A DNA stretch of 40,000 nt from NCBI RefSeq assembly GCF_004799665.1, contig NZ_CP031310.1, forward strand, positions 200,887-240,886. The letters run 5' to 3'. Source of the stretch: Halapricum salinum (GTDB lineage Archaea > Halobacteriota > Halobacteria > Halobacteriales > Haloarculaceae). A model generated the notes under the pieces. The model had not been told where the DNA came from. It saw only the letters and a list, made by a program, of their open reading frames with translations, and did no database searches. The position numbers and the translations under genes are program-made. This document shows, piece after piece, positions 471 through 40,000 of the stretch (its first letter is position 1; every line of letters begins with the position of its first letter).

Positions 471-473
471 CGA

Positions 474-24722: not shown

Positions 24723-24956
24723 ATGCCCGACCGTGACGAAGATTCTGGCCGGTATACCGGCGAGTACTCTACTGAAGATTTTCTTAATGCCATCAGTGAC
24801 AAAGAAGAGATGGCAGGGACGGGCGATATTGCCGATCATGTAGGTTGTGCCCACGACACAGCGTATAAGCGACTCCAGCAGATGGAAAAAGATGGATTAG
24901 TTTTGTCACGAAAAGTAGGGAACACTCTCCTGTGGACACGTCCCGAAGATAATTGA
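24723..24956 (+). CDS. Small winged-helix DNA-binding protein
   Basis: The 77-aa ORF reads ...MAGTGDIADHVGCAHDTAYKRLQQMEKDGLVLSRKVGNTLLWTR, a typical small haloarchaeal wHTH. Confidence 0.65.
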   Translation: MPDRDEDSGRYTGEYSTEDFLNAISDKEEMAGTGDIADHVGCAHDTAYKRLQQMEKDGLVLSRKVGNTLLWTRPEDN

Positions 24957-25136
24957 TCGCTTATCTTTTTCAAAATATGTCCTCTATCTATTCGATAATG
25001 CCTCCATCATCGCATCGTATACTCGAAGGGGTCATGCGACTCATTCACCGTTCCCAGCCCTCATTTCTGTAAAGTCCACACTTTATTATTTAAAGTACAG
25101 GCTTTGCTGTGTTCTATGGCTCCCTGAACACGATAG

Positions 25137-26666
25137 TTACACTTTGTCTGCTAATTCGAGAACAGGGATCGTTTTCTTATTCTCATCCCCATACGTCACC
25201 TCGTTATTGCTGAAATCGAAGCGGATGGGTTTGCCGAGATAGGAGGACCGCTCGATCTTGGTCAAAGCGTCCAAGTCGCCGAGCTTCCAGCATATGAACC
25301 GGTCGATATGAGTCAGTGGAGTCTCATTTTCGAAGAAATCACTAAGCTTGACCTGTAGTGCTGCGTTCTTGTATCCCTCATCGGTGTCAACGATAGCATT
25401 AACCTCTTCGTCCAATCGGAAGTCCGCTATCTCAAGGGTCTCTGGTGATCCATTAGCGCTGTACCGTTCTAATGCTGCGATGACCTCTGCCGGATTCGAC
25501 GGGGAGAGTCCACCTTGGTCTTTGGTATGCTGGAGGCGTTCTTCGAGTGAGCTTCCCTGCGACTGGATGCTGCGTTGCTTGTTCTCCAGCTTGCGACGTT
25601 CGATATAGTTCCTGTACCAAGAATCTTGACACACTTTTGTCATATACCGATTCAGTTCATCAGTGATGGACTGGTAGACGTCGCCAGACTTGTTCCGAAT
25701 CTTCTCCCGGTTAGCAGAGAGTTCGAGGTCTTGGCAGTTTGCGATGAAGAAGAAGTGGAAGAACTCGTTGTCTGCTCCGATCGCATCGTTGTAGCGTTCG
25801 ACCTTGATGTGATCTTTCGCCAGCCAGATACCGAACTGTGCTGAGTGCTTACCATAGGTCGGCAGCTTATTCCGTGCTTCCTTTCCACCGACCATCCCCA
25901 CGACTTCGATCGTTAATTCGCGGCTATCGTCAAGGGTGACGGTCAGCTCACGGGGCGGGTAATGCTTGCACATTTCTTCCGCAACGAACTCGCCCTCTGG
26001 ATCCCGGTTTTCGGGCGGGAACTGTAGGCGGTTGTCGGTCTCAATCTGATCCTGGGTATCGTCGATTGTCGGCGACAACTCAACGTTGATGTCCATCTCG
26101 TGGAAGTCGTCGCCGAAGTGCCACGCGGTGGAGCCGCCGATCGTCTTCCATTTGATGTAGTGCTCAATCTTGTTGTAGGTAAGCTTTCGTGGGTCGAAAC
26201 CCTGACCAGCACGGAACCCATGTACTTCGATTCGGGTTCGGGACGGTTCGTCGCTCTCCGTCTCTTCGATGGAGTACGTGGGTAGTTCACGGTCGTTCAG
26301 TTTCGCCCACGGCTGGTCCATCACCGACTCAATCCGCGTCCCATCTGTGACTGTCTCAACCCGAATCTTGTCGCTTTTGTAGTAGATCTTGGTACCGTGG
26401 CCCTTGTATCCGATTGCGTCGTCCTTGTTGGAGTTCCCGAGATCGAAGAACGACGACAGGTCGTCTTCATCCATTCCATGGCCATCATCCTTGATGATGA
26501 GAGTGTTCCGTCCCTCGGCATCCTGCTCGATCTTGATATCGACCTGCGTCGCGCCTGCGTCGTAGGAATTGGATAGTGCTTCTCTGATAACTTCCAACGG
26601 GTCCTCGAAGTCGCTCGCTATCTCGATGAACTCGTTGACTTCGTTGACTTGTGGTGTCTTATGCAT
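25137..26666 (-). CDS. GHKL-superfamily ATPase (HATPase_c_3 / MORC-Hsp90-like N-terminus) with a large unknown C-terminal region
   Basis: The motifs are an N-box (VIREALSNSYDAGA), a G1 box (IIKDDGHGMD) and a G2 box (IGYKGHGTKIYY). Its ATG (26666) overlaps the stop of the upstream TGT-like gene (26659) by 8 nt. Confidence 0.8.
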   Translation of the reverse strand: MHKTPQVNEVNEFIEIASDFEDPLEVIREALSNSYDAGATQVDIKIEQDAEGRNTLIIKDDGHGMDEDDLSSFFDLGNSNKDDAIGYKGHGTKIYYKSDKIRVETVTDGTRIESVMDQPWAKLNDRELPTYSIEETESDEPSRTRIEVHGFRAGQGFDPRKLTYNKIEHYIKWKTIGGSTAWHFGDDFHEMDINVELSPTIDDTQDQIETDNRLQFPPENRDPEGEFVAEEMCKHYPPRELTVTLDDSRELTIEVVGMVGGKEARNKLPTYGKHSAQFGIWLAKDHIKVERYNDAIGADNEFFHFFFIANCQDLELSANREKIRNKSGDVYQSITDELNRYMTKVCQDSWYRNYIERRKLENKQRSIQSQGSSLEERLQHTKDQGGLSPSNPAEVIAALERYSANGSPETLEIADFRLDEEVNAIVDTDEGYKNAALQVKLSDFFENETPLTHIDRFICWKLGDLDALTKIERSSYLGKPIRFDFSNNEVTYGDENKKTIPVLELADKV

Positions 26667-27918
26667 AGGTTGTATCTGTTTCCTCGAAGTATGGATTAAT
26701 CCGTTCGTTGATCAGCTGGTAGGCGAACTTGCGGAAGCCTTTCTGGTCCTTCACGGCCTCCTCTAAATACTCAGCTACCCGTTCTTTGTCTGCCTCAGCG
26801 ATCAGTTGACGGAACTTGCGAAGTTCCCTTTGCTGAACCGCGAGATTGTGGGCTGCCACCGAGCCGAGGATGTCCTTCTGATACAGGTCGTCCATCTCGT
26901 TCCGCATCCGTGCTCGGTGGAAGTCGTCGTTACAGATCCGGCATTCACAGTCGTCGAAGTTCGCTTCATCTATCGGAACTGTCTCGAACAGGTTGACGCA
27001 ATACTTCCCGTTGATCGCTTGGTGTAGGTAGGAGGCAGAATCAAAGGTATCAGCCCCGACAGCAACGAGTAGCGGCATTGCGTTCCCCGAAATTCCTAAT
27101 ACGTGTAGAGGGAGGTCGTCATACCCTCGCTGTTGCATCTCCCGCTTACAGTCGGATACTGCTTCGACGAGAACCTCAACGTTGTCTTTTCGCGGTACGA
27201 GGCTACCTAACGCAATCCCATCGAACGCTTCAGGGATTGGTTCTGCAAGTTCGTCTTCAATGAGGTCGAAGGATCGTTCGAGCATCGCTTCATAATAGCC
27301 ATGCACTGTGAGGTAACAGGCCCCGTTAACCTCGTCACGACGCTCTGCGAACCGGGCAGCGTTGGCGGCTGTTTGCTCCATCTTTTCGATCCGCTCCTCG
27401 AACTCGTCATCTGGATGGATGGGGTGGTCCAAATTGACCACGATGTCTGGTCCTAAGTCTAGCTGTATGTCTAGCGCCTTATCCTGGTCAATATCCTTCT
27501 CGAAGTCCTCACCTTCTAGGCCACCCTGCTTTAGGATTTTGTAGCCGCCGGAGTCTGCGAAGATCATCCCGTCATAGTCGCTGAAACAGTCCCACTCGCG
27601 GATCTCGTTGTCGAGATACCATTCCAGCTTCTTCTCCCGAATCCCGTAGTCGGCCAGGGAGGAAATCGAAGTCATCACACCGTTGAAAAGGTCACTGTAG
27701 TCTTCACCACCGGTGACTTCGTTGTCGTGAGCAAGGAACTCCTTGATCGTACGGTGGACCCCGCCACCAAATAGCGCGCCCTCGTTACCGCCGCCGTAGA
27801 AGTTGATCACCGGGAACAGGTGTGGGGTTTCCAGGGTACGGTCATTAATCTGGAGCTGGCCACGTCGTGCCTCGCCTGCCTCCGCAACGACATCGAATGA
27901 GGCCATACTATCAGTCAC
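26659..27918 (-). CDS. tRNA-guanine-transglycosylase-family protein without PUA domain (DpdA-like candidate)
   Basis: The N-terminus is ArcTGT-like (ARRGQLQINDRTLETPHLFPVINF). The catalytic Asp motif is IFADSGGYKIL and the second Asp region is HVLGISGNAMPLLVAVGADTFDSASYL. The zinc motif is CECRIC (CxCxxC). The start is the GTG at 27918 or the ATG at 27906; either way it is within a few nt of the upstream stop (27911). Confidence 0.82.
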   Translation of the reverse strand: MTDSMASFDVVAEAGEARRGQLQINDRTLETPHLFPVINFYGGGNEGALFGGGVHRTIKEFLAHDNEVTGGEDYSDLFNGVMTSISSLADYGIREKKLEWYLDNEIREWDCFSDYDGMIFADSGGYKILKQGGLEGEDFEKDIDQDKALDIQLDLGPDIVVNLDHPIHPDDEFEERIEKMEQTAANAARFAERRDEVNGACYLTVHGYYEAMLERSFDLIEDELAEPIPEAFDGIALGSLVPRKDNVEVLVEAVSDCKREMQQRGYDDLPLHVLGISGNAMPLLVAVGADTFDSASYLHQAINGKYCVNLFETVPIDEANFDDCECRICNDDFHRARMRNEMDDLYQKDILGSVAAHNLAVQQRELRKFRQLIAEADKERVAEYLEEAVKDQKGFRKFAYQLINERINPYFEETDTTYA

Positions 27919-28372
27919 CGTGCACTGGAATGGAACGGCCGCTGGAAACCAAGTGCTTCAGCCGCTTTCCCTTCATTCCGATACCGGTGCCTTCGATATA
28001 GTCAACGGGTACATCAACGGCAGATTCAACCCCATCGACAGCTGGAAGATAGTCCTTTCCCAGATTGATCCATACGTTGTCATACCCGTTAGTAGTGACT
28101 TTGCTGGCAATAGCGCTGACGACTTGGTCGTTCAGTTCGTCAGCACGTTCTGTGTCCATCCGACGGTCATAATATCCAATTTCCTGATCAGGTTCCACTA
28201 CTCCGTGCTCCGCGGATATAATCATAATGTCAATTCCAGACTGAAATCGACCCGTGCGCAATGCCTTCTTTATAATCCTGAAGAAGTATCCATCGTACAA
28301 ATCGAGAGCAGGAACCGGTGTATCCACCTGTTCCTTCGTTGCAGAACACGATTGGACTAATAACGACGCCAT
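27911..28372 (-). CDS. Small conserved-looking protein, DUF6884-like (function unknown)
   Basis: MASLLVQSCSATKEQVDTPVPALDLYDGYFFRIIKKAL...IMIISAEHGVVEPDQEIGYYDRRM. The SCSxxK...PA..LY.G..F...ISA.hG pattern resembles DUF6884 and the Cys-Lys region of DUF5591. This is pattern memory only. Confidence 0.5.
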   Translation of the reverse strand: MASLLVQSCSATKEQVDTPVPALDLYDGYFFRIIKKALRTGRFQSGIDIMIISAEHGVVEPDQEIGYYDRRMDTERADELNDQVVSAIASKVTTNGYDNVWINLGKDYLPAVDGVESAVDVPVDYIEGTGIGMKGKRLKHLVSSGRSIPVHGD

Positions 28373-28455: not shown

Positions 28456-30351
28456 TCAACTGGTAAACCGACCAACGAGCTCGTCGATATTTTCACTGCG
28501 GAAATGCTCGGTCAACTGAAGAGCTCGCGGATCAGATGGGTATATTTCACCGCGGCCATACCGGTTGAACGCCGTATCGATAGCACGTCGGTAGGCTTTG
28601 TTCGTGGTGTAGGCTATAATTTGGTCAAATTTCTCACCGTACCGGGTCAGGTAACGAGCAAGTCGGTTCGCAACAAGTTCAACTTGGTCGTCATCGGCAG
28701 TCGTCAATACATACTCGTAGCTCATCACCGGGTCAGCCTCTTCGAAGTCCTCAGGTACCGGCCCGTATAGCCCTGAGATGGACACCTTATGATATCGCTC
28801 ACGGTAGTCCTCAAGCCGGGAGAGGACAGCCTGATGTGTCCGTGACTTCGAATACGGCTTCTCCTGACTACAGGGTAGAATCAGTAGTACATCTGCCTCG
28901 CTCGGCGGCTGATACTCGTCGTGCTGGAGGATATCGAAGTCATTTGGCCCGTGTTTCAGCGAGATGGTCCGTTTCTTCCGTGTCGTGTCCTCGACTCCTT
29001 CGAGGAAGCTAGATAGCTTGGTCTGGAACGTCTCGTCATCCGGTCCGGCAACTAACCCTTCGTAACCGATGTCTGCAAGTTGTTCGCGGAGCTCTGGGTT
29101 GTGTAGCTGAGCCCGCTTCAACGCTTTCTCAACGATATTCTTTCCCTGTGCGAAGTTAGCAACACGTTCGAGCAAACTCCCATCATCAATGGCGTCACGA
29201 ACTTGTTGCATCTGGCGGCTGTACAGCTCAAAGTTATGATGAGCTATCTGTGCGTAGTATTCACTCTTGAAGTGAGTCCCGTGTTCACCCTCAATAGGCT
29301 TGTTACTGATATCGGATTCCAGAAGGGCGTGCCGCATATCACCGAAGTGGATGTTCTGGCAGGCTTGACAGTTACAGGGCCATTCCTCCCAATCATCAAT
29401 TTGGTCCAAACTGACTCGTTGCCAGCTATCGGGGTGGATGAATTTCTTATTGCGGGCCGCATACTGATAGCTTCTCGAATCAAACGTATCGACGCCGAGG
29501 AGAGACAGTAGAGGACAGAGCCTTCCGCTTATGCCGAAGACGTGGAATGCGATTTCGTCGTAACGGTCCTCGGGTATCGCGTCTCTTGCCCCTTGAACGA
29601 TATCGACCAAGGTATCTGGAGAGCTGCTGAGGGGAACAAGTGAACCCAGGGCGAACCCCTCGAAGGCCTCAGCAAGTTCATCGGCGCGGTCCAGAAATTG
29701 ACTGACATACCAGTTGACATCCTCGTAGTTGTGGCCGTGTATGGCCACATACATAGACGGCGTCTCCTCCAGCTCGCGCTCGTCGAGCAACTGGAGAGTT
29801 TCAACCGCGTTATCGATACTCTTCTCCATCCGTTCAGTGGTTTCTTGCTTATTCAGGTTCTGTGGAATCGGAAAGTCCAAGGTGGCAATGATATCCGCGC
29901 CGTAGTCAATCTGCAAGTCCAAGATGCTCTCTGGATTCGTGTAGATATCCCAGTCGTTCGCACTACCGCCTTCGTCAGGCGTCTGTCCGAACTTCGTCGA
30001 GTTCATCAACTTAAATCCGCCCGAGTCGATGAATAGCGGTTGATCAAACCCGGGCTCAACGTCACTCTCCTCGAAATGCTGTTTGAGCGGCTTCTCTCGC
30101 CACTCTTCCAGATTGTCAGGGGTGAGATTGTAGTCGAGAAACGACATCGCTTGGAACATAATCCCCTGGACGCTGTCGCTCTCAAAGAGGTGCCGACGGG
30201 TATACCGCCAGATACCACCGGATTCTGTTGTCGTCCCTCCAATCAAATTTACAACAGGTAGAAGCTCGGGCGTCTGGATACAGCCGGCGGGCGTGTCTAT
30301 TTCTCCTCGGCGGCCGTATGAAGCCTTTTCAAGAGTCTTGAATGCCGACAT
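28456..30351 (-). CDS. TGT-domain protein fused to an ArcS-type (DUF5591) domain; archaeosine-synthase-like paralogue lacking a PUA domain
   Basis: The TGT core is RRGEIDTPAGCIQTPELLPVVNL, LFIDSGGFKLM, FHVFGISGRLCPLLSLLGVDTFDSRSYQ, with zinc motif CNCQAC. The C-terminal domain has LLILPCSQEKPYSKSRTHQ, which fits PC-x3-KPY-x2-S-x2-H exactly. The ATG is at 30351; the track starts one codon earlier at a TTG. Confidence 0.82.
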   Translation of the reverse strand: MSAFKTLEKASYGRRGEIDTPAGCIQTPELLPVVNLIGGTTTESGGIWRYTRRHLFESDSVQGIMFQAMSFLDYNLTPDNLEEWREKPLKQHFEESDVEPGFDQPLFIDSGGFKLMNSTKFGQTPDEGGSANDWDIYTNPESILDLQIDYGADIIATLDFPIPQNLNKQETTERMEKSIDNAVETLQLLDERELEETPSMYVAIHGHNYEDVNWYVSQFLDRADELAEAFEGFALGSLVPLSSSPDTLVDIVQGARDAIPEDRYDEIAFHVFGISGRLCPLLSLLGVDTFDSRSYQYAARNKKFIHPDSWQRVSLDQIDDWEEWPCNCQACQNIHFGDMRHALLESDISNKPIEGEHGTHFKSEYYAQIAHHNFELYSRQMQQVRDAIDDGSLLERVANFAQGKNIVEKALKRAQLHNPELREQLADIGYEGLVAGPDDETFQTKLSSFLEGVEDTTRKKRTISLKHGPNDFDILQHDEYQPPSEADVLLILPCSQEKPYSKSRTHQAVLSRLEDYRERYHKVSISGLYGPVPEDFEEADPVMSYEYVLTTADDDQVELVANRLARYLTRYGEKFDQIIAYTTNKAYRRAIDTAFNRYGRGEIYPSDPRALQLTEHFRSENIDELVGRFTS

Positions 30352-30354
30352 CAA

Positions 30355-30494: not shown

Positions 30495-30962
30495 ATGGCT
30501 CAAAACCTATCTGGAGAACACTCCCTCACATCAGAGGATATCTCCGAGGCTGAGCGAACCTTACACGTCGGACGTGACCGGCCGATTCGTCTAAGTACAG
30601 GTCACCGGATTCTACACCATGACGGCAAGTGCAGCCGTCCCCATGGGCATAACTACAAAATCAGCGTCTCGATAACTGGCACCCTAACCAGCGAAGGGTG
30701 GGTCATCGATAAGGGAGACGTCACTTCTGTATTATCCGAGTGGGATCACCGATTTCTCGTGGAGAAGGGCGATCCACTGATCGAGGCTTTTGAGGACAGC
30801 GGCGAAGGCGATGCCCTAATCGTGCTCGACCAGCCCCCGACAGCCGAGGTGATGGGGATCGTTCTTGAACGACGGCTGGAGGAAACATTACCGGAGACGG
30901 TCAGTAATGTCGCAGTTGAGGTTCGAGAAACCGGTGAGCTCGCTGCCGGAGGAGCTCTATAG
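30495..30962 (+). CDS. queD: 6-carboxy-5,6,7,8-tetrahydropterin synthase (QueD)
   Basis: LSTGHRILHHDGKCSRPHGHNYKISVSITG...GWVIDKGDVTSVLSEWDHRFL shows the PTPS/QueD Cys-His-His zinc/catalytic pattern. Confidence 0.88.
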   Translation: MAQNLSGEHSLTSEDISEAERTLHVGRDRPIRLSTGHRILHHDGKCSRPHGHNYKISVSITGTLTSEGWVIDKGDVTSVLSEWDHRFLVEKGDPLIEAFEDSGEGDALIVLDQPPTAEVMGIVLERRLEETLPETVSNVAVEVRETGELAAGGAL

Positions 30963-30966
30963 AGCA

Positions 30967-31749
30967 ATGCCGGTGAATTCGGATGTTCCAACGGTTGAGG
31001 AGGGTTCTACTGGTACAGAAACGAAGGACGGGCTGCCAGTGAATGAATTGTTCTACTCGTTACAAGGCGAGGGGAAAATCGCCGGGATGCCGAGCGTGTT
31101 CGTTCGGACGAGTGGTTGCAATCTCCGGTGCTGGTTCTGTGACTCGTTCCATACCAGCTGGGATCCGACCCACGCCTGGCTCGATGTCGATGCTGTCATC
31201 AATCGTGTCACCGATTATAAGAAAGCAAACCACGTCGTCGTGACCGGCGGTGAACCATTGCTACACGACGAGACGACCAATCTGTTAGACCGCCTCAGCG
31301 ATGCTGGCTACCATACTACCGTCGAAACCAACGGTACGATCTATCACGATACTTCCATCGATCTAGTGAGTATCAGTCCCAAACTGGCGAGCAGCACCCC
31401 GACTGCGGCAAAGGACCCACAGGGCGATGGGGAATGGGCAGATCGGCACGCTGATCGACGGATCGACATAGACACTCTCTGCCAGCTGGTGGAGGCCTAT
31501 GATTTCCAGCTGAAATTTGTAGTTACAGATAGAGATGATATGGCCGAGATCAACCGGTTAGTTGATCGGCTTCGGGACGCTGCAGATGCGGTGATTCGGG
31601 ATTCAGACGTTTTGTTGATGCCGGAGGGTTCGACCCGTGAACGATTATCGGAAACCCGTGAACTGACTGCGGAGGTAGCGATGGAGTACGGATATCAATA
31701 CACGCCTCGACTTCACGTTGAGCTCTGGAACGACGCACCCGAAACATAG
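30967..31749 (+). CDS. queE: 7-carboxy-7-deazaguanine synthase (QueE, radical SAM)
   Basis: LPVNELFYSLQGEGKIAGMPSVFVRTSGCNLRCWFCDS carries the CxxxCxxC cluster. It is followed by HVVVTGGEPLL. The ATG at 30967 is 4 nt after the queD stop; the track start at 30865 overlaps queD and is rejected. Confidence 0.88.
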   Translation: MPVNSDVPTVEEGSTGTETKDGLPVNELFYSLQGEGKIAGMPSVFVRTSGCNLRCWFCDSFHTSWDPTHAWLDVDAVINRVTDYKKANHVVVTGGEPLLHDETTNLLDRLSDAGYHTTVETNGTIYHDTSIDLVSISPKLASSTPTAAKDPQGDGEWADRHADRRIDIDTLCQLVEAYDFQLKFVVTDRDDMAEINRLVDRLRDAADAVIRDSDVLLMPEGSTRERLSETRELTAEVAMEYGYQYTPRLHVELWNDAPET

Positions 31750-32477
31750 TGTCAAATTATACAGCCATGACGACTACTCAAGGAGATAGCACGGATAGCG
31801 CGGTTGTCCTTGTATCGGGCGGGATGGATAGTGCGACTGCAGCTTTTGAGGCGAAGCACAGGGGATATGACTTGTACTTCCTCCACACAACCTACGGCCA
31901 ACAAACAGCGGACAAAGAGTCAGAGTGTGCCCGAGAATTGGCCGACTATATGGATGTCACGGACTTCCTTCACATCGAAACAGACCACTTAGCTCGGATC
32001 GGTGCTTCCAGCCTTACTGACGAGAACATCGATGTGGAAGAAGTCGATCTCGATAGCGATGAGATACCGTCAAGCTACGTTCCGTTCCGGAACTCGAACC
32101 TGCTATCAATGGCCACGTCGTACGCTGAAGCAAACGACTGTGGGGCCATCTTTATTGGTGCACACAGCGAGGATTACTCCGGTTACCCGGATTGCCGCCC
32201 GGAATTCTTTGATGCGTTCCAGCAGATTATAGATATCGGGACGAAACCAGAGACGTCAATCGATTTGGTGGCACCGTTCGTGGATTGGACGAAAACAGAG
32301 ATTGCGGAGCGTGGTCTAAATCTCGGTGTTCCGTACGAGCTTACGTGGAGCTGTTACCGCAATGAGGAACCAGCCTGTGGTACTTGCGATGCATGTGCCT
32401 ACCGACTCAAAGCATTCCAAGACGTAGGAATGAAGGATCCGATTAGATATCGAGAGCGCCCTAGCTACAGTGACTGA
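31749..32477 (+). CDS. queC: 7-cyano-7-deazaguanine (preQ0) synthase (QueC)
   Basis: The PP-loop is AVVLVSGGMDSATAA. The C-terminal zinc cysteines are WSCYRNEEPACGTCDACAYR. The GTG at 31749 overlaps the queE stop by 1 nt; the alternative start is the ATG at 31767. Confidence 0.88.
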   Translation: MSNYTAMTTTQGDSTDSAVVLVSGGMDSATAAFEAKHRGYDLYFLHTTYGQQTADKESECARELADYMDVTDFLHIETDHLARIGASSLTDENIDVEEVDLDSDEIPSSYVPFRNSNLLSMATSYAEANDCGAIFIGAHSEDYSGYPDCRPEFFDAFQQIIDIGTKPETSIDLVAPFVDWTKTEIAERGLNLGVPYELTWSCYRNEEPACGTCDACAYRLKAFQDVGMKDPIRYRERPSYSD

Positions 32478-32538
32478 TAAGACGTGAAGCTGTTTAAGAG
32501 GCAAACAATTCTTATTGGTGCGTCTTAGTGCTCATATC

Positions 32539-33012
32539 ATGGGCGAATTTGCGGACGAGGTCGTTAAGCGGTTGAAAGATCATTTAGCACAGTTCTGCAC
32601 ATCTTATAAGTGGGACACTGAATACCTTATTGCAGAAACACCAGTTGACATCGCAGGAATCGATGGTGATCGGTACGTGTTAATCGAACTCGAATGGCGT
32701 CGGGCGGACCCAGCTGACAATGCCGCGAAGATTTTTCGCCATCTCAGTACGAGGGAGATTCCTGCTGACCAAGTTATAATTTTGCAGTTATTTACCAACC
32801 ATTACAATCTCATTTCGGACGGCGTCTCGTCCAAGCGAAAGAACGCGGAATTCGTGGGCAAAACTGCCGCTGGTACTATTGACTATCTCACCTACCAACC
32901 CCTTGATTTTGACATCGATCCACCAAGATCGGGTGAGGAACGCCCCAACAAGTGGGAAGAGATAACTGATGATGTATCTGCAACAATCTCGTCAATAGTT
33001 AGTTGCTCCTGA
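32539..33012 (+). CDS. Hypothetical protein appended to queDEC (weak PD-(D/E)xK-like pattern)
   Basis: The ATG is at 32539 (MGEFADEVVKRLKDH...). The segment ETPVDIAGIDGDRYVLIELEWRR loosely resembles a D...ExK nuclease core. This is a weak resemblance. Confidence 0.45.
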   Translation: MGEFADEVVKRLKDHLAQFCTSYKWDTEYLIAETPVDIAGIDGDRYVLIELEWRRADPADNAAKIFRHLSTREIPADQVIILQLFTNHYNLISDGVSSKRKNAEFVGKTAAGTIDYLTYQPLDFDIDPPRSGEERPNKWEEITDDVSATISSIVSCS

Positions 33013-33066: not shown

Positions 33067-33390
33067 TCAATCGGATTGATCACCAGTAAATTGGGCTTCG
33101 TTCTTAACTCTCCCAATTGCACCGTTCAGTCCATAAATAAGTGTAGCTGCGACATCGAAAGCTTCCCTCCGCTGGAGCTTTGAGATGGGCCTTGTTACAA
33201 ACTCTTCCCCGTCGGTATTGATACCGGTGATAGGAATCACTGAATAATCGTCGTCACCCATCGTTCCATCGAGCCGAACTAAGATCGTATCATCTTCGTC
33301 ATAAACCCATTCGATATAATAGTCGTCATGGATGTGCTCAGTCCATCCTGAAGGGTAATAATCGATATGCTCGGTTTCACTTTCAGGCAT
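33067..33390 (-). CDS. Hypothetical acidic protein
   Basis: The ORF is 107 aa from the ATG at 33390 (MPESETEHIDYYPSGWTEHIHDDYYIEW...). I recognised no family. Confidence 0.4.
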   Translation of the reverse strand: MPESETEHIDYYPSGWTEHIHDDYYIEWVYDEDDTILVRLDGTMGDDDYSVIPITGINTDGEEFVTRPISKLQRREAFDVAATLIYGLNGAIGRVKNEAQFTGDQSD

Positions 33391-33393
33391 CTT

Positions 33394-33428
33394 AGTATGT
33401 AAAACAGTGATTCCAAAGTATGTAAAAC
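33394..33428. repeat. Perfect 12-bp direct repeat agtatgtaaaac x2 (23-bp period)
   Basis: The copies are at 33394-33405 and 33417-33428, immediately upstream of the 33390 (-) start. On the minus strand they read GTTTTACATACT, which is TATA-like. Confidence 0.5.
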
Positions 33429-33539
33429 CGGTCGTCTGTCCTTCTGGTGTCGGGCTTCCAAGGATCAAATGTTAGAGTGAGAAATTTATTGACGACGAAC
33501 CGGGCAACATATCTACTGAAGATCACTCATATACTTCCT

Positions 33540-33980
33540 TCAAAGCCCTAATTCGACGTCTAAATACGTAGCTACGCTTCCGTACTCATTCTCCATAATT
33601 TCACAGAGCTCACGGTTGACCGTCAGACCGCTGTGAGTGATATTTGCAGATCCTACGTACACCAATTCGGGGCCCACGACGGCTTTCGCATGTAGATCAT
33701 CTACGGTAGTCATCGAGGTGTTTCCCATACGGGAGACAAGTGAGCGCATGTAGTCGTTGTGTTGTTCGCCAGTGCGAACGTAGAAATCGACATCCGTGTT
33801 CAATTCTCTAATCGCCGCGGACAGGGAAAGTCGGCGGCTCGACAATTTATCGGTGAGTGGAAAGCGCAGTTCCACATCGCTGAGCCAGGGCGAACAGATC
33901 GCCATACGTTGGGCGTGAACGAGAGAGTACCCGATAAAGTACGATAGCCCACTAGAGGGTAAAGAAAATGCTCGTACCAT
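33540..33980 (-). CDS. Phospholipase-D-family (HKD) nuclease, DrmC/Nuc-like
   Basis: VDDLHAKAVVGPELVYVGSANITHSG fits HxK...GSxN. The N-terminal AQRMAICSPWLS is typical of PLDc_2. The start (ATG at 33980 or GTG at 33989) overlaps the helicase stop (33952) by about 29-38 nt. Confidence 0.72.
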   Translation of the reverse strand: MVRAFSLPSSGLSYFIGYSLVHAQRMAICSPWLSDVELRFPLTDKLSSRRLSLSAAIRELNTDVDFYVRTGEQHNDYMRSLVSRMGNTSMTTVDDLHAKAVVGPELVYVGSANITHSGLTVNRELCEIMENEYGSVATYLDVELGL

Positions 33981-36900
33981 CGATCTCACCTCCTGGAAGC
34001 ATCTCTCGCTCGATCATTTGAGACGCGGCATCTTCGGAGGGAACTCTTTCGATCAGCATCTCTCGGAGACTTTCAAGCAAGACGTAGCTCAAGCTTTCCG
34101 ACTGGTCGTGTGCCGATATGCACTCCGCTAAGTGTAGATTCTCGACACAACCGTCGATATCCGGAGAGAAAAACAGGGATTTCACCCGATCAAGGTCTCC
34201 AACATCGTGTGGCATTTTTCTGACCGCATCAGCAGGGAATTCATTGTTGCCCGCTACCTGCTCTTTTGAGACGGTCTGTTTGATTCGGTATGCCGTTTCG
34301 GTTGAGATGCCTTCCTCACTCGAAAGCTGCCTAGCTCGATCAATCGAGGAGAGCACTTCATCCACGATCAGATCGGCGACATCGGGGAAGATCGGAGTTT
34401 CATCCATATCACGGACGACTTCTCGAACGGTGTGTTCGTCTGGGTCTTCCGGTATTCGTTCCACGAAACCCTCCGACGCCCAGAGTCTCTCGTTGATGAC
34501 CTGTGGATTATAGCAGATATGGGTCAGCGCGTTTAGTGCCGTACCCGGATCGGTCTGGAGGTCTTCGTAAACCAGATCAACGATGCCTTGGCCACCCTGA
34601 GACCGCTCAAACACATACACCTCGTCGGCTTCGTGATCAATCCCGTAGAAGAGCATACTTGGATTGACTCCGCCAATATCGGCGACCAACTGGGTGAAAC
34701 AGTGCGCCGCTGTATGCCGAGCCACTTCATTGAGTGATAACTCATTCAGCGACTTGTAGCGACGTACTCGTTTCTTAGTCTCTTCGTCAATGTCGGACAC
34801 GAAGTCGCTCAGGTCGAAAATCAACCCTCGGGTATCGAGCGAGAAACCCAAGGGCCGATTCCCGGTCGTGATTTCCTGAGAAATCCGATCCTCGCCGGTG
34901 AATATGAACTCATTTTCATCACCAACGGGTCGTGCCGGTGTGATTTCAAGGGATACTCCCGTGAGAGTTACTTTCCCAGTAATGTCAGCGAGGGTTGCTC
35001 TCCCCCGTGTCGCTTCCTCTTGACGCCCTTCAAGTCTAGTCTCTACTTCCGGGTTAGAATGGATTTTTCCGAACGCTCTATCGTTATGACGTAAGCACCG
35101 ATCCTCTTTAAGAATCTGGAAACACTCGGGACAGTACCTGACGATATTCAGAGCGCGACCGCCGCTGAGATCTTCTATATCGTCAAGAGTGATAGAGTCC
35201 GGAGTAATCATGCCGTCGCGCCGGTCACCGGGGACGTCCTCAAAGGAGAATCTGACCCCGTCATCATCAGCAATGGTTTCGGGTAGGTAGGCTTGCAAAT
35301 GACCTGCTTCTTGTTGATACTCGCTACGGTACGGAGCATAGGTCTGAACGAGTTTGTCGATAGACTGTTCGTCGCCACTCTCATCGTCCTCCCCATAGAA
35401 CACCGTGAAGTACTTCCCAGCGTCTTGGAAGTAGTTCGGGGGAACGTACCAGACGGTGCCTTCAAGCGAACGGTGGTCAACTTTCAGGAACCGGTCATAA
35501 TAATACGCCCCTCGAAGGAGATGCTTGACGTAGTACAGGCTCTTATCGTTCTGTTCAATAGAGTTGTATTCGCCGAGCTGAGTCAGCGTCTGTCTGAGAT
35601 AGTAGATCTGTTTACGCTTCGTTGCCGTCTTATCGAGCTCCTCGCTTTCAATCGCGCGGCTGGCTGTATCAACGCGGTCAACCACCTGATCAACGGACGT
35701 CGGCAGTTCTGGAAGGTTAACAGACACGTATTCTCGGTCAACGACACGCCGGAGTCTCTCGACGTCACTCGTTATCCCGTAGAGATCAGGGATCAGATCG
35801 TCTAATGCTTCGACTTGTTCAGTAGGCGGAGTTTCAGCGAGGTTTGTGACGGAGGTTCGAAGCTCTTCTAGAGTTGATTCCAAGGCATCGAGCTGTGATT
35901 TGACCTTCTCTTCGGTACTGACATCGGAATCTTCGATTTCGTCGATTAGCACTTGTCGCTGGCTACAGAATTCCAAGAAATCAGTTCTTATCTCTGAGAC
36001 TAGAGACCGAGCCAAGTCTTCTCTTTGCATAGACTGCCCAACCTGATCCTCGATGAGATCTGAAATCTCAGGCTGTGTCACGTCCTCCCTAAGCTCGGAC
36101 AGAACCTGATCTACAGTCTCAACCGGCTCCTCTCCATGTAATGCAGGGAGCTGACTCTCACTCACGTCAATTCCGAACTCTCGGCGCAATACAGCTGCAG
36201 GTTCCGTGATGAACTCGTAGTACTGTTTGTAGCCCAGTTCTGAACAAAGGAACTGTTCGAGGAACTCTTCCTTCCGGTCAATTGACCCAGAGAACCACTC
36301 TTTCGAGACAGCTGTTGATGTTTCGTAGAACTTCTCGAACTGGTCGTGGATCCAGGCAATCACGTGATTATCCGTCTTCAATGGCGTTCGGATTTCAGAC
36401 CCGAGGAAACGGTCGGCACGATAGAACATATTCGCGTCCTGAGTGAGATCCGAGAGGAATACGACAATGTGTGAGTCGGTGTCTTCCTTCCGCGCTGCTC
36501 GTCCCGCACGCTGAATGAATGACGACAGATCCCACGGCGTCCGATACTGCGTGACGATAGTGATCTCACCGACGTCAATCCCGACCTCAAGGAAGCTCGT
36601 CGAGAGCAGCAGGTCGCTCTCGGCTGTTGCAGCAGCGTCGAACCCAGCGTCTGAGTAGACAGATTCGAAGCGAAGTGAAGATTCAATGAAGTCGCAGTCC
36701 ATCTCCTTAGCTACCCGATCCCAGTTAGAGTAATCGCTTCCAGTTCTGTGATACCGCCAGAGTTCGTTTGCTCGATCAGCGTCCTCCAGTTGCGCCCTCT
36801 TTTGGTTCACTTGGCTTATACTGTCGATGAATGAGAGGATTTTCCCGCGCTCACCGGTCTCGCTGTTCAAGAGGCTATGTCCAAGCAACATCAACTGCTG

Positions 36901-38028
36901 GATGGCCATCGATGAGACCCCAGGACCTTCCTCCGACGTTTTGAGGAAGTAGTAGTGCTCCTTGTCCTCGTGGTCCGTTCGGAAATCGGAGTCAGGCGGC
37001 GCGACTGATTCAACTCGTCCACTTGGAACGGGAAAGAGATCAGTAGCAAATCGCTGTGGATCATCGACCGTCGCGCTTGAGCCTAGCCAGAGCAGCGAAT
37101 GGTCCGTTATCGCCTCGATATTTTGTGCTATATTTGCAGTATGTGCTCCTCTGAGCCCGGTGTACAGGTGGACTTCGTCGAATACAATCGTATCGGCCCG
37201 GTCAATGATGTTGTAGTTCGGTTTGAGTGAGAATAGCTCCAGAGATTCTAACGTCGTCAGAAGAATGTCCGGTCCAGGCTGATTTTTGATATCAGTCCGA
37301 TTAAGCAGGACCTCCCGATCAGAGAAGGAGTGTGCATCATTGTTCTCGCAAACCAGGCGGTAAGTCGAACTTCCTCCTTGGTAGGTGAATGAGTGAGTTT
37401 CGTCGTCTCCACACCAGCAATCGGCGAGCTTGAATCGACGCGTGCCATGCTGATTAGCAAAAAATGCGTCTTTCCTTTCAACCTCTGATGACGTATACGG
37501 TGTGTTGCTGGTCCATACCCCAACAGAAAGGCTAGTGTCGTGCTCTGTTCTAAGGTTGTACAAGTGTTCTAGAATCCGTCCGAGTTGGTCCTGTAGGAGA
37601 GCCCGACTCGGATAGACGACGATTGCCAAGTCCTGTTGATCTTCTGCTAACAGCTGATAGAGTGGGCCGAGAAACGCTTCTGTCTTTCCAAAGCCTGTGG
37701 GTGCCGAGAAAATCGCGCCACGCGAGTTGTTGGATGACCGTCGATCCGCATCGAGGTCGCGGATCAGTTGCCAGCTTTCGACCTGAAAGTCGAGTGGCTT
37801 GAAATCGAAGAGTTCGATGATGTCAGCAACGAACTGATCGTCACCAGTGTATTTACTCGTGGCTCGTCGATCCTGTGGCCTCTGTGTGTACTTGACACCA
37901 TCCGTGATGTAAGGAGGATTGTCTTGGTCAGCATCGAATATCTGGGTGTTTGAGAGAAAACCGCGAATCAGCGGTCGGATATCATCAGGGATTCGTGAGG
38001 CATTCGAGTTCCGATCAAAGTACTTCAT
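33952..38028 (-). CDS. Large DExH-box superfamily-2 helicase with a DUF1998 (MZB)-like C-terminal domain
   Basis: The helicase motifs are I (SAPTGFGKTEAF), II (VFDEVHLY), III (GSSATV) and VI (FIQRAGRAARK). The C-terminal region has CPECFQILKEDRCLRH, RHTAAHCFTQLV...VYVFERSQGGQGIVD and DIDGCVENLHLAEC. I prefer the ATG at 38028 to the TTG at 38064. Confidence 0.82.
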   Translation of the reverse strand: MKYFDRNSNASRIPDDIRPLIRGFLSNTQIFDADQDNPPYITDGVKYTQRPQDRRATSKYTGDDQFVADIIELFDFKPLDFQVESWQLIRDLDADRRSSNNSRGAIFSAPTGFGKTEAFLGPLYQLLAEDQQDLAIVVYPSRALLQDQLGRILEHLYNLRTEHDTSLSVGVWTSNTPYTSSEVERKDAFFANQHGTRRFKLADCWCGDDETHSFTYQGGSSTYRLVCENNDAHSFSDREVLLNRTDIKNQPGPDILLTTLESLELFSLKPNYNIIDRADTIVFDEVHLYTGLRGAHTANIAQNIEAITDHSLLWLGSSATVDDPQRFATDLFPVPSGRVESVAPPDSDFRTDHEDKEHYYFLKTSEEGPGVSSMAIQQLMLLGHSLLNSETGERGKILSFIDSISQVNQKRAQLEDADRANELWRYHRTGSDYSNWDRVAKEMDCDFIESSLRFESVYSDAGFDAAATAESDLLLSTSFLEVGIDVGEITIVTQYRTPWDLSSFIQRAGRAARKEDTDSHIVVFLSDLTQDANMFYRADRFLGSEIRTPLKTDNHVIAWIHDQFEKFYETSTAVSKEWFSGSIDRKEEFLEQFLCSELGYKQYYEFITEPAAVLRREFGIDVSESQLPALHGEEPVETVDQVLSELREDVTQPEISDLIEDQVGQSMQREDLARSLVSEIRTDFLEFCSQRQVLIDEIEDSDVSTEEKVKSQLDALESTLEELRTSVTNLAETPPTEQVEALDDLIPDLYGITSDVERLRRVVDREYVSVNLPELPTSVDQVVDRVDTASRAIESEELDKTATKRKQIYYLRQTLTQLGEYNSIEQNDKSLYYVKHLLRGAYYYDRFLKVDHRSLEGTVWYVPPNYFQDAGKYFTVFYGEDDESGDEQSIDKLVQTYAPYRSEYQQEAGHLQAYLPETIADDDGVRFSFEDVPGDRRDGMITPDSITLDDIEDLSGGRALNIVRYCPECFQILKEDRCLRHNDRAFGKIHSNPEVETRLEGRQEEATRGRATLADITGKVTLTGVSLEITPARPVGDENEFIFTGEDRISQEITTGNRPLGFSLDTRGLIFDLSDFVSDIDEETKKRVRRYKSLNELSLNEVARHTAAHCFTQLVADIGGVNPSMLFYGIDHEADEVYVFERSQGGQGIVDLVYEDLQTDPGTALNALTHICYNPQVINERLWASEGFVERIPEDPDEHTVREVVRDMDETPIFPDVADLIVDEVLSSIDRARQLSSEEGISTETAYRIKQTVSKEQVAGNNEFPADAVRKMPHDVGDLDRVKSLFFSPDIDGCVENLHLAECISAHDQSESLSYVLLESLREMLIERVPSEDAASQMIEREMLPGGEIDGTSIFFTL

Positions 38029-38086: not shown

Positions 38087-38761
38087 TCATGAGAGGGTCA
38101 CTTCGAGATAGTCTGCGAGATCGGACTCATGGAGGCGATTGAGTTCCTCTTCTGAGAGCGCTGCCAACGTTAGCCGTTCGTCGTCTAATAACCGATCAAC
38201 GAGCTCATCAAGCGGTGTATCCCGGTATGGGCCAAACAGAGCGTCCTTTGCCTCCTCTAGTGATTGACGCATAAAGTGACCGTACTCTCTGGCCTCCTCT
38301 TTCCGCTGGTCGATTTGATCCGCTTCAATCTGTGCCTCCCAGTTCCAGTTATCGAGGAGGGTATCGAGCGCATCTAACTTGTCTTGATCTACCCGCTCAA
38401 CTCGCTGGTTCAACCGAATCATGCCTCGGACAGTGTTGTGGATGTCGATTCTCGCTTGGTGAACGAAGTTGTTAACCTCCCTCCGTTGAGCTTCGACAGC
38501 TTCGCGGGTTTCGGGAAGTCGTTCTGCGAGAGCATTGTAATCGTCCTGCTCTAACAGAGATCTAGCCTCTTCGACCGCGTGTTTCGCCTCAGAGTCTATC
38601 TCAACTTCAGTCCGGAAGAAGGCTTCAGCAAGAACTCGTTCGAGAATCGTTTCCTCCATCGTTTTTGCGAGCTCGTCTAGTTCTGATTCCAGGCCTTGTC
38701 GCCGGTGCTGTTCGTAAATCGTCTCTAGCTGTTCCTGAAACGTACTGGAATTAGCTGACAT
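38087..38761 (-). CDS. Hypothetical coiled-coil protein
   Basis: The 224-aa ORF is E/R/L/A-rich and looks helical throughout. Its start overlaps the stop of the upstream gene by 11 nt. Confidence 0.55.
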   Translation of the reverse strand: MSANSSTFQEQLETIYEQHRRQGLESELDELAKTMEETILERVLAEAFFRTEVEIDSEAKHAVEEARSLLEQDDYNALAERLPETREAVEAQRREVNNFVHQARIDIHNTVRGMIRLNQRVERVDQDKLDALDTLLDNWNWEAQIEADQIDQRKEEAREYGHFMRQSLEEAKDALFGPYRDTPLDELVDRLLDDERLTLAALSEEELNRLHESDLADYLEVTLS

Positions 38762-40000
38762 AGTGATCGCTCACCTCCTTGAACCGCTCACCGAGACCTC
38801 CCCTGTGTCCACCGTTACTGCTCGCACCATCGATTGGAACAGAACGGAACCGTTTCACGACTGGTGTGGCTGCCAACTTCAGAGAGATCAGTGCTGCCTG
38901 AATCTGATCTTGGGTGTTTTCCATACGGAGAGTATCGGCAGTATCAGCGGCCTCAACAGCCTTATCGACATCTGCTTGAGAGAAGTCAACGAACTTCGTT
39001 AGCTCCTGTTGGAGATCTGGATTCACGTTATCATAGGTTCTGAGATTAGACACGAGTTCGGAAACTCGGGTCATATTGAGCGTGGAGAATTCCGAGTTGA
39101 TCTCCTCTATCAGTTCACGGTCGTAGCCGTGGTCCGCTACCTCTTCGAGAGCTTGGCGTACGTCGTACATCGTATCCGCAATCGACCGGACATAAGCCTC
39201 CTGTCCGAATCGAACGCGGCTATCTATCTCTGCGATGTATTGCCGACCGAGCATGTCGAGAACCTCGTACGGCGGGTTCCGACCCAGCCGTCTCCGGATC
39301 TTCGGAACGTCTAGACTGCCCCCGGAGACGCCCAGTAGTTTTCCCACCATAGCTTCGATGTGATCGGCGGAGTCCATCGCTGTCTTGATGTGGTCGTACT
39401 CTTCCTGCGAGAGGATCTCAGTAATCTGTTCTTCGAGATGCGGATCAACCGAGAAAGCGTCGTCCTCACTGAAGCGTTCATTAATCGCGGTCGCATCGAT
39501 GTTGCGCCACGGAGAGTCAAGCATCACCAGATGAACGTATGTAGCTAAGACGAAGTCCGTGAAGTCATAATCTGCACTCCCTTTGTAGAACACCTTCTCC
39601 CCGTTAAGATATTCCTCAATCAGCATTTGACGCCACTGTAGGGCGTAGTACATCAACTGAGTCCCACACTCTGTGAGAAGCGAATCAACGTCAGCACTCC
39701 GCGGTTCCTCTACCCGGCGGATTCCGTATTTGAGTATCTTCCGGAGGTCAGATCTTCTGAAGTCACGTCTGTCAAGCAGAATCTGATCTATTTCCGGTGA
39801 GTCATCACTCTCAACGTAGACGAATGGATCCTTCTGACTGCTAAGCCGATATTCAAGTTTGGTTCCTTCGTAAAGTTTGAACCCGTCCGTGAGATGTTCG
39901 ATAGCATCCCTGAGCCCCTGTCGGATGAAGCGGTTTGTCTTAGCGTATTCTTCTGGATTTTCGAGCCAAGAATCCACTAAGCCGTTGTGTTTCTCGATTA
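38751..40000 (-). CDS. Hypothetical protein, 5' end probably outside the window
   Basis: The track starts it at the GTG at 39977, but the frame stays open to the window edge (…IEKHNGL-VDSWLENPEEYAK…). It is at least 408 aa, acidic, and I recognised no motif. Confidence 0.55.
   Translation of the reverse strand, partial: IEKHNGLVDSWLENPEEYAKTNRFIRQGLRDAIEHLTDGFKLYEGTKLEYRLSSQKDPFVYVESDDSPEIDQILLDRRDFRRSDLRKILKYGIRRVEEPRSADVDSLLTECGTQLMYYALQWRQMLIEEYLNGEKVFYKGSADYDFTDFVLATYVHLVMLDSPWRNIDATAINERFSEDDAFSVDPHLEEQITEILSQEEYDHIKTAMDSADHIEAMVGKLLGVSGGSLDVPKIRRRLGRNPPYEVLDMLGRQYIAEIDSRVRFGQEAYVRSIADTMYDVRQALEEVADHGYDRELIEEINSEFSTLNMTRVSELVSNLRTYDNVNPDLQQELTKFVDFSQADVDKAVEAADTADTLRMENTQDQIQAALISLKLAATPVVKRFRSVPIDGASSNGGHRGGLGERFKEVSDHYVS

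Follow-up and report, generated by a model that had tools for sequence, protein, structure and literature searches.

Two overlapping genes on the minus strand of a 40,000-nt stretch of Halapricum salinum (contig NZ_CP031310.1, positions 200,887 to 240,886; hereafter the window, whose numbering is used throughout) encode a large superfamily 2 (SF2) helicase and a small nuclease of the phospholipase D (PLD) family. We consider it very probable that the two proteins are the effectors, DpdJ-like and DpdK-like, of a Dpd-type restriction-modification system of haloarchaea, of the kind named BRIGADE Type I, on an integrated island of low GC content. To our knowledge, Dpd-type systems are the only known form of cellular immunity in which a 7-deazaguanine, rather than methylation or phosphorothioation, serves as the self mark, and we know of no account, even for bacteria, that explains how the Dpd restriction proteins read this mark and cut DNA.

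The helicase–nuclease pair

In PADLOC searches the helicase (33952–38028, minus strand) matched DpdJ first (3.3e-53), with BrxH, DruE (9.6e-21) and DrmA (4.2e-12) far weaker. The PLD protein (33540–33980, minus strand; 146 aa from its ATG) matched DpdK first (8.7e-12 versus 3.4e-7 for DrmC) and reached 17.9 bits with the NCBIfam DrmC model, whose cut-off is 133. A tblastn search of 72,556 plasmids with the helicase placed two full-length haloarchaeal homologues on top, followed by four dpdJ genes annotated by PGAP (Paenibacillus, Enterobacter, Nostoc) among a few DEAD/DEAH-only helicases, one of them cyanobacterial. Three bacterial Dpd clusters from plasmids were compared all against all with the proteins of the module to which the pair belongs (see below), using profile–profile alignment (hhalign): the helicase aligned with DpdJ over aa 19–558, including the pre-helicase region and a Cys-rich insertion in RecA1 (probability 100, E 3e-41), the PLD protein with DpdK (probability 99.1, E 1.6e-18), a P-loop NTPase with DpdH (probability 97.8, E 8.7e-13) and, weakly, a 273-aa protein with DpdG (probability 62, E 7.6e-5). 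The other pairs were noise, save for the expected cross-matches between helicases, and for a ~310-aa and a 224-aa protein of the module nothing was found among the bacterial Dpd proteins. Gene order and gene sizes of the module match dpdG-H-I-J-K. We judge the N-terminal region of the helicase, both RecA domains and the putative zinc insertion in RecA1 to be homologous to bacterial DpdJ. The bacterial loci L026–L034, considered as another source of DpdJ, were dropped: the helicase of L032 is of the YjiT/STY4851-associated kind and not Dpd.

An earlier reading of the window from its letters alone, here called the original prediction, had taken the pair for a fused DrmAB/DruE-like motor with a DrmC-like nuclease. 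As a family assignment this was not borne out: DpdJ and DpdK are the closest families in PADLOC, NCBIfam and hhalign alike. We rejected DISARM on the much weaker DrmA and DrmC scores, the lack of a methyltransferase and the union of helicase and DUF1998-like module in one polypeptide, and Druantia on a DruE match that is confined to the RecA2 region and the lack of consistent Dru partner genes; among the neighbouring genes, PADLOC gave no consistent Dru partner and, as weak matches, DruC1 for 4 of the 41 proteins (best E 0.006). The wider family stands. Comparison with DrmA, DruE and MrfA supports a YprA/MrfA-family motor with helicase core and DUF1998-like module in a single protein, since MrfA/YprA is the best match in the PDB both by sequence (3.4e-22) and by fold, whereas DruE and DrmA are outscored by DpdJ. 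DrmA plus DrmB, DruE and DpdJ all belong to the YprA/MrfA helicase family (Bell et al., bioRxiv 10.1101/2025.09.15.676423).

The open frame of the helicase gene runs from 38064 to 33952 (minus strand), and the ATG at 38028 gives a protein of 1358 aa, the same length as that of the closest homologues. Pfam assigns DEAD (1.5e-15), Helicase_C (1.8e-10) and ResIII (3e-8) domains, scores that we regard as far above chance. The predicted set of SF2 motifs I, II, III and VI in one 1358-aa protein was confirmed, and its core residues are invariant in 18 relatives: motif I (Walker A) reads APTGFGKT (aa 109–116; 37681–37704, minus strand), motif II is DEVH (aa 284–287; 37168–37179, minus strand; D284, E285 and H287 invariant), motif III is SAT (aa 318–320) and motif VI is QRAGRAAR (aa 506–513; 36490–36513, minus strand; Q506, R507, G509, R510, A511 and R513 invariant). 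The Cys-rich insertion in RecA1 (C204, C206, C227, H233; 37330–37419, minus strand), a putative zinc-binding module by conservation and alignment, keeps its three cysteines in 15–16 of the 18 homologues and, in the alignment with bacterial DpdJ, coincides with an insertion there that is likewise Cys-rich; Bell et al. count one zinc-binding module in RecA1 among the features of Dpd.

Two features had been proposed for the C-terminal region: a CxxC...C.H zinc site and a block resembling DUF1998/MZB. The first holds. Its residues (C966, C969, C978, H981; 35086–35133, minus strand) are conserved, each cysteine in 51 and the histidine in 52 of 56 homologues, and the site falls in a β-strand region of our AlphaFold2 model, the β-rich, OB-like part of the C-terminal module; it is a putative zinc module of its own, upstream of the DUF1998 cysteine cluster. 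The second holds at the level of fold and not in sequence tests. Pfam MZB/DUF1998 (PF09369, gathering score 24.2 bits) does not match the helicase, and among the 18 relatives it gave 3 matches, none usable (E ≥ 0.16). The model of aa 844–1358, built from 56 homologues (pLDDT 89.9, pTM 0.86), has one significant match in a Foldseek search of the PDB, the ‘DUF1998 helicase’ MrfA (6znp_A; E 1.5e-6, probability 1.0, 411 aligned columns); large insertions in the C-terminal module of the helicase keep the TM-score low, at 0.27. Within this region hhalign and Foldseek support a divergent MZB/DUF1998-like block (aa 1058–1159; 34552–34857, minus strand) with the elements PLGF..DTRG, HTAAH and VYVFERSQGGQGIVD, in which HTAAH...E1141...G1145-G-Q-G1148..D1151 is invariant or almost so in the homologues. 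In profile comparison the block weakly matches the part of the partner helicase that carries its Pfam MZB domain (E 0.0023), and its GGxGI part the equivalent site of bacterial DpdJ (E 0.011). In Pfam, bacterial DpdJ proteins show the domain architecture of the helicase and, like it, no MZB match.

After the GGQG motif and a helical insertion of ~130 residues follows what conservation in the 56 homologues marks as a remnant of the DUF1998 cysteine cluster (DIDGC1294VENLH1299LAEC1303...Q1309; 34102–34161, minus strand): C1294 is kept in 56/56, C1303 in 51/56 and H1299 in 45/56. The four-cysteine cluster expected after the GGxG motif is thus incomplete, with two of the four canonical cysteines left. 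Loss of the four-cysteine cluster has been reported for the Dpd branch of the YprA helicases (Bell et al.), and both the two-cysteine remnant and the failed MZB sequence tests agree with this. Since Pfam MZB fails, the case for DUF1998 in this helicase is made by the fold and the weak profile matches: according to the model, the fold of the last 515 residues resembles the OB-connector-DUF1998 ‘canopy’ of MrfA, with a decayed four-cysteine cluster, and the region is predicted to be MZB-like in fold and outside the MZB family in sequence tests.

The PLD gene overlaps the 3′ end of the helicase gene by 29 nt if it starts at the ATG at 33980, and by 38 nt if it starts at a GTG at 33989 (149 aa); both starts had been allowed for in the original prediction. 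A perfect Shine-Dalgarno sequence, GGAGGTGA (33986–33993, minus strand; read from the sequence), lies within the coding end of the helicase 5 nt before the ATG. Because the GTG sits within GGAGGTGA, the ATG is the likely start, giving 146 aa. Overlap of the two genes is likewise present in annotated relatives, and the 29-nt overlap with its internal Shine-Dalgarno sequence has the appearance of classic translational coupling of the PLD protein to the helicase. The anticipated HxK...GSxN signature is present as the HKD catalytic motif H100-A-K102...G113-S-A-N116 (33642–33692, minus strand), whose H, K, G, S and N do not vary among 24 sequences; at the position of the canonical Asp this protein has P, whereas 13 of the 24 have D. 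Pfam PLDc_2 scores 25.9 bits (9.7e-6), slightly under its 27-bit cut-off, and a phmmer search against PDB sequences gave nothing meaningful. As the DpdK profile covers aa 19–135, most of a protein of 146–149 aa, there is no space for an N-terminal four-helix bundle. The protein is best described as a putative minimal single-HKD nuclease of the DpdK type, an assignment shared by Pfam, PADLOC, NCBIfam and hhalign at family level; the same four sources place the helicase as a DpdJ-like member of the YprA/MrfA family.

The seven-gene module and the linked deazaguanine genes

Helicase and PLD nuclease had been regarded as a self-contained unit. This view has to be given up: they are the last two genes of a module of seven that runs off the window and includes a second, larger helicase. 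Its conserved order is second YprA helicase, ~310-aa protein, ~275-aa DpdG-like protein, DpdH-like NTPase, ~225-aa protein, DpdJ-like helicase and PLD nuclease. In a genome scan the pair took this terminal position in a locus 97% identical to the window (L001) and in ~24 haloarchaeal genomes, with the module genes either collinear or divided into two divergent operons. The window holds the C-terminal ~416 codons of the ~969-aa DpdH-like P-loop NTPase (38751–40000, minus strand; frame open at the window edge), so that what appeared as a ‘408-aa ORF’ (open reading frame) at the edge is the C-terminal part of a gene extending past 40000; its full-length counterpart in L001 lies at L001:6369–9278. 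Of the 41 module proteins scanned, 11 are NTPase homologues; 9 proteins of the scan match PADLOC DpdH, with a best E of 9.9e-14. Between NTPase and helicase lies a gene for a 224-aa protein in the DpdI position (38087–38761, minus strand), directly after the DpdH-like gene in most loci; it carries no recognisable domain, and its hhalign comparison with DpdI is not significant (E 0.13). DpdH and DpdI together are treated as BrxC-like by Bell et al.

The second helicase, encoded beyond 40000, was seen in L001 (L001:210–4643), in a locus 98% identical to the window (L045:10001–14737) and in ~22 other genomes. It is 1460–1590 aa long, with RecA1 and RecA2 ~600 residues apart, and its Pfam MZB score, 31.8 bits, exceeds the gathering threshold. 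Its best PADLOC match is DruE3 (3.5e-41); no ARMADA model came up in the PADLOC 2023 scan, and DruE is the nearest proxy. PF09369 is present in nearly all of 120 listed relatives, several of which are named ‘YprA (DUF1998 family)’. On this evidence the true helicase–DUF1998 fusion of the system is the second helicase. Homologues also occur in Asgard archaea (Promethearchaeota, Heimdallarchaeum) at 27–32% identity (P0230–P0232, P0235).

The ORFs scanned in the window, and the 20 kb upstream in L001 and L045 (97–98% identical), showed no methyltransferase domain; the latter stretch is the region past 40,000 where such a gene was to be looked for, and the predicted absence of a methyltransferase is confirmed over this range. 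Beyond the second helicase, L045 carries genes for a 1463-aa SF1 (AAA_11/AAA_12) helicase, a Halo_toxin protein, an HD protein and a HerA-like ATPase. Around the module in L040, L041, L042 and L035, loci from different genera, several genes recur: they encode a protein of ~210 aa that weakly matches VWA, a ~250–280-aa HHH_5 protein, an Exo_endo_phos nuclease and a ~1460–1490-aa SF1 AAA_11/AAA_12 helicase; these may be further accessory components.

A set of deazaguanine genes lies within 8 kb of the PLD gene. The preQ0 synthesis genes form a block on the plus strand (30495–32477, by Pfam) consisting of queD (30495–30962; PTPS 6e-19), queE (30865–31749; Radical_SAM 7e-15) and queC (31749–32477; QueC 1.5e-73). 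On the minus strand, a TGT-family transglycosylase of 419 aa (26659–27918; Pfam TGT 7.5e-30) is a candidate DNA-guanine transglycosylase analogous to DpdA, with PADLOC DpdA at 2.7e-6 and an hhalign match to DpdA of probability 89 and E 2.3e-6. A GHKL (HATPase_c_3) ATPase of 509 aa (25137–26666, minus strand; Pfam 9.8e-15) adjoins the TGT gene in every locus that carries it, with an 8-nt overlap in the window; hhalign detects no similarity between this ATPase and DpdB. On the other side follow a DUF6884 protein of 153 aa, of DpdC/DpdA-associated type (27911–28372, minus strand; Pfam DUF6884 1.4e-13, PADLOC DpdC 1.8e-4), and an ArcS-like paralogue of 632 aa with TGT and DUF5591 domains by Pfam (28456–30354, minus strand), which reaches 126 bits with NCBIfam ArcS against a cut-off of 440. 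The latter lacks a PUA domain and has an intact PCX3KPYX2SX2H motif (PCSQEKPYSKSRTH at aa 494), as defined for ArcS (PMC5699537). Homologues of the DUF6884 protein also match PF03883 (YaaD/DUF328, the DpdC family), and the protein aligns with the N-terminal ~140 residues of a Paenibacillus 689-aa DpdA (hhalign E 2.5e-6), which hints that DUF6884 may be a general partner domain of DNA transglycosylases. This DpdA is encoded in L037 (Paenibacillus sp. 37 plasmid pART37), in a Dpd region with two dpdJ genes. The Dpd modification trio of DpdA, DpdB (ParB-like ATPase) and DpdC (DUF328) was not recovered as such: the TGT protein scored low, no DpdB-like protein was found, and the DUF6884 protein is weakly DpdC-like.

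Two small genes separate queC from the PLD gene. The product of the 165-aa gene (32515–33012, plus strand) is ~75% identical to its counterparts in L001 and L002, where flanking genes are 93–97% identical; the protein recurs by que or TGT genes in six other loci, has no detectable domain and gave nothing in hhalign against DpdA, DpdB and DpdC, the only proteins with which it was compared. A 133-aa ORF between the PLD and 165-aa genes (33067–33468, minus strand) has no counterpart in any fetched locus, including L001 and L002. The ORF and the divergent 165-aa gene suggest a small recombination or insertion patch.

The link of the pair to deazaguanine genes, a central point of the original prediction, finds strong support in gene neighbourhoods well beyond this window. 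Deazaguanine genes adjoin the module in 20 of 26 haloarchaeal genomes, 16 of them with the set of TGT, GHKL, DUF6884 and ArcS-like genes and 4 with que genes alone; for five of the 26 genomes the flanks are incomplete. Halopenitus, Halosimplex salinum and Haloprofundus marisrubri were apparent exceptions that resolved when the flanks were extended past the second helicase, and the same extension revealed queD-queE-folE-queC in Salinibaculum. We looked for the pair without que or TGT genes and found one possible case, Halovenus amylolytica, judged over 44 kb. All close homologues come from Halobacteria or Nanohaloarchaea, and the window is 97% identical to loci of Halorussus sp. AFM4 and Halorubrum sp. 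CBA1125. In Haladaptatus sp. YSMS36 the system is plasmid-borne. A contig of a Nanohalobium metagenome-assembled genome (L023, 38–42% GC) carries queD/C/E, the helicase and PLD genes and GHKL-TGT-DUF6884 within 11.6 kb. In this contig of a DPANN symbiont (Candidatus Nanohalobium) the pair is sandwiched between the modification genes, and there is no space for the other five module genes: L023 represents either a minimal version of the system or a cut contig. The contig also shows transfer of the system between the lineages of hosts and symbionts.

Just downstream of the PLD and que genes, several loci of Halorubrum and Haloarcula encode a prokaryotic Argonaute (PDB matches down to 8e-29) and a second, divergent DpdJ-like helicase of 29–31% identity (L003:17679–20009, L003:20048–24019, L009:15136–19326, L021:18164–22309). 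We read this as stacking within a defence island or, possibly, as a second BRIGADE-type unit. The 776-aa ORF by queC in L003 was tried as a TGT fusion and rejected, being the Argonaute.

The island has a sharp border. A tyrosine integrase of 419 aa (10873–12132, plus strand; Pfam Phage_integrase 1.7e-8) sits exactly where GC content falls from ~60–68% (1–11000) to ~51% (11000–40000), and the entire defence region has the look of a mobile island that has integrated. The window yielded no tRNA gene. At 18984–19601 there is another integrase gene, which is truncated. At 22000–25000 the GC skew is strongly negative (about −0.25) and the local GC 0.58–0.59, over ORFs of 276 aa and 298 aa without family matches; a homologue of the 276-aa protein adjoins the 165-aa gene in L011. 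The minus-strand gene at 16521–17912 encodes an archaeal ATPase_2 and DUF234 protein, a PDC-S27 candidate in PADLOC (1e-43) with weak CARF/CasR-type helix-turn-helix matches; a CasRa-like regulator has been mentioned with BRIGADE Type II (Bell et al.).

Proposed mechanism and alternative explanations

By analogy with Dpd, DISARM and Druantia, the locus would work as follows. QueD, QueE and QueC would make preQ0, and the TGT paralogue would exchange guanine for preQ0 at specific sites of the host DNA, powered by the GHKL ATPase as the counterpart of DpdB, which acts for DpdA in bacteria in an ATP-dependent way. The DUF6884 protein, the ArcS-like paralogue without PUA domain, or both might modify the inserted base further. 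The seven-gene module would survey DNA, with the two YprA helicases loading and translocating on unmarked molecules, and a PLD homodimer, bound to the co-translated DpdJ-like helicase, would cleave these. That a deazaguanine underlies the discrimination between self and non-self in the archaeal system as well is something we infer from the bacterial one: there DpdA, DpdB and DpdC make dPreQ0 and dADG, and DpdD–K restrict (PMC10164549), with unmodified plasmid restricted more than 1000-fold, DpdJ being the helicase and DpdK a PLD-family endonuclease (PMC5567051).

Several observations weigh against this Dpd-type assignment. All NCBIfam equivalog cut-offs for Dpd are missed by a wide margin: the helicase reaches 171.3 bits with DpdJ (NF041067; cut-off 800) in a match limited to aa 80–546, the PLD protein 46.9 bits with DpdK (NF041068; cut-off 100), which is still its top family, and the TGT paralogue 27 bits with DpdA (cut-off 200). 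DpdB, DpdD and DpdE/F have no orthologue here, and function can therefore not simply be transferred from Dpd. Three parts of the module, namely the second helicase, the DpdG-like gene and the N-terminal portion of the NTPase, fall beyond the window and are deduced from the 97–98% identical loci. Linkage is imperfect: on a plasmid of Natrinema the TGT–ATPase pair lies 18 kb downstream, with the ArcS-like gene on the upstream side, and around the module of Halovenus amylolytica a span of 44 kb shows neither TGT nor que genes. Furthermore, the PLD domains are dispensable in Druantia III-A DruE, and DrmC is dispensable against some phages (preprint, May 2026), so that the PLD protein may not be the main effector. 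The same preprint still counts BRIGADE among the uncharacterised YprA systems.

A variant of the Dpd-type reading concerns the chemistry of the mark. Rather than dPreQ0 or dADG, it could be of the archaeosine type (dG+ or a preQ0-lysine adduct), written by the TGT–GHKL pair and the ArcS-like protein without PUA domain, with helicase and PLD nuclease destroying DNA that lacks it. We hold this as a tentative proposal that is appreciably less likely than not to be correct. If true, the locus would be the first demonstrated hypermodified-base restriction-modification system in an archaeal cell, with a chemistry new to cellular genomes.

Among the explanations that abandon the Dpd-type mechanism, the strongest, which we nevertheless regard as improbable, is a helicase–nuclease of the DISARM/Druantia kind that senses single-stranded DNA or DNA ends irrespective of modification and shares the island with deazaguanine genes of separate function (for example anti-restriction, or a function in tRNA). 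Druantia III-A DruE does sense single-stranded DNA without modification, DISARM DrmAB recognises a 5′ overhang (preprint, May 2026), and the partner helicase scores best against DruE (3.5e-41). The Halovenus locus fits such independence, as do the varying spacing (up to 18 kb) and orientation of the two gene sets. However, adjacency in 20 of 26 genomes, from many genera and on a Nanohaloarchaeal contig, goes far beyond what hitch-hiking on an island would give. Four proteins of the module are specifically homologous to Dpd restriction proteins and stand in Dpd order, and an ArcS-like paralogue without PUA domain argues against a role of the deazaguanine genes in tRNA.

Attack on modified rather than unmarked DNA is a further alternative: a Type IV-like module could target invader DNA with a foreign 7-deazaguanine derivative, such as that of dPreQ1 haloviruses, and exempt the derivative of the host. 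DNA of the halovirus HVTV-1 contains dPreQ1, and deazaguanine pathway genes are found in 16 archaeal viruses (PMC6884629); the extra ArcS-like and DUF6884 genes suggest a further-modified host derivative that could separate host from virus marks. The Pfam scans of the module proteins, however, revealed no reader domain for modified bases (EVE, SRA, YTH), and the bacterial homologue restricts unmodified DNA (PMC5567051), so we give this model little credence. The least credible explanation, a housekeeping repair pair that like MrfA/MrfB removes DNA adducts, can point to MrfA/YprA as the best PDB match of both helicases in sequence and fold, and it is opposed by the low-GC island with its integrase boundary, the patchy distribution and presence on plasmids, the multi-gene defence-type operons near Argonaute and other defence genes, and the position of the Dpd/BRIGADE helicases in the defence, not the repair, branch of the YprA tree (Bell et al.).

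The Dpd-type interpretation gives the locus its interest. The haloarchaeal version is leaner than the bacterial one and falls into two clear blocks, and both tractable haloarchaea and deazaguanine-modified haloviruses exist. The locus is a concrete, well-delimited example with a coupled helicase–nuclease pair, a partner helicase, a DpdH-like NTPase and a compact modification set. Its discovery value is limited because the architecture was catalogued in 2025 (Bell et al.); what remains of interest is that this kind of system is experimentally uncharacterised and that its modification set is unusual.

Comparison with known systems

BRIGADE systems were described as ‘detected exclusively in halophilic archaea’ and contain a cluster of 7-deazaguanine genes, in most cases two YprA helicases, and a PLD protein as a typical component; Type I combines one ARMADA-like and one Dpd-branch helicase and shares DpdG and DpdHI/BrxC (Bell et al.; PMC12458937). 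The locus shows every one of these features: a halophilic archaeal host, a Dpd-branch helicase, an ARMADA-like helicase, a small PLD protein and deazaguanine, DpdG and DpdHI genes. Type I often includes a large DNA2-like SF1 helicase-nuclease, and L045 encodes the 1463-aa AAA_11/AAA_12 protein just upstream. No defining feature was found to differ. Judged by its gene content, the locus is a BRIGADE Type I system, of a kind already named in 2025 and therefore not new, and not a derivative of DISARM or Druantia. The functional logic of the original prediction is largely upheld. In the BRIGADE preprint the structural dissection is on a Type II representative, and little is said about the modification genes. 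To that description the locus adds the remnant of two out of four cysteines, the CxxC..C..H site, the PLD gene coupled through a Shine-Dalgarno sequence, the pairing of TGT and GHKL genes and the ArcS-like paralogue that lacks PUA and keeps its motif intact; none of these contradicts it.

With bacterial Dpd, in which the use of a deazaguanine in place of methylation as self mark is already known (PMC10164549, PMC5567051), the locus shares the helicase homology over ~540 residues, the Pfam architecture, the C-terminal GGxGI block, an adjacent minimal PLD protein and the G-H-I-J-K order, as well as linked preQ0 genes and TGT paralogue and the lack of a methyltransferase. It differs in that identity is ~25% and the C-terminal 800 residues of the helicase barely align. 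One ARMADA/Druantia-like YprA helicase and the ~310-aa protein replace DpdE/F, DpdD is missing, a GHKL ATPase stands in the place of DpdB, the TGT protein is arcTGT-like and not DpdA, and there is an extra ArcS-like gene. DpdJ has two specific domains, an N-terminal MukF-like winged helix-turn-helix and a C-terminal ALBA-like domain (Bell et al.). The alignment starts at aa 19 of the helicase and aa 85 of DpdJ, and with an N-terminus ~65 residues shorter the helicase probably lacks the MukF-like domain; a model of its last 121 aa (pLDDT 82.7) gave no significant Foldseek match in the PDB that would indicate an ALBA-like domain.

The resemblance to the other systems named in the original prediction is more distant. 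DISARM has a YprA-family helicase, which Bell et al. place in one deep clade with Dpd, a module of the OB-connector-DUF1998 type and an accessory PLD protein. There, however, DrmA and DrmB are separate whereas helicase and module are fused here, the PLD protein of the locus is too short for the N-terminal four-helix bundle of DrmC, and there is neither a methyltransferase (DrmMI/DrmMII) nor DrmD or DrmE. Druantia DruE resembles the in-window helicase as a large SF2 enzyme of the YprA/MrfA type that has zinc-binding modules and a region of MZB type; the in-window helicase, however, carries neither PLD domains fused to its C-terminus nor a long stretch inserted between RecA1 and RecA2, and the locus has no DruA–D or DruH genes. 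The repair helicase MrfA/YprA (PDB 6ZNP/6ZNS) is the best solved-structure match of the helicase core by sequence and of its C-terminal module by fold, but it is a protein of 750 aa with an intact four-cysteine zinc site that acts in repair with the MrfB exonuclease and is not located on a defence island.

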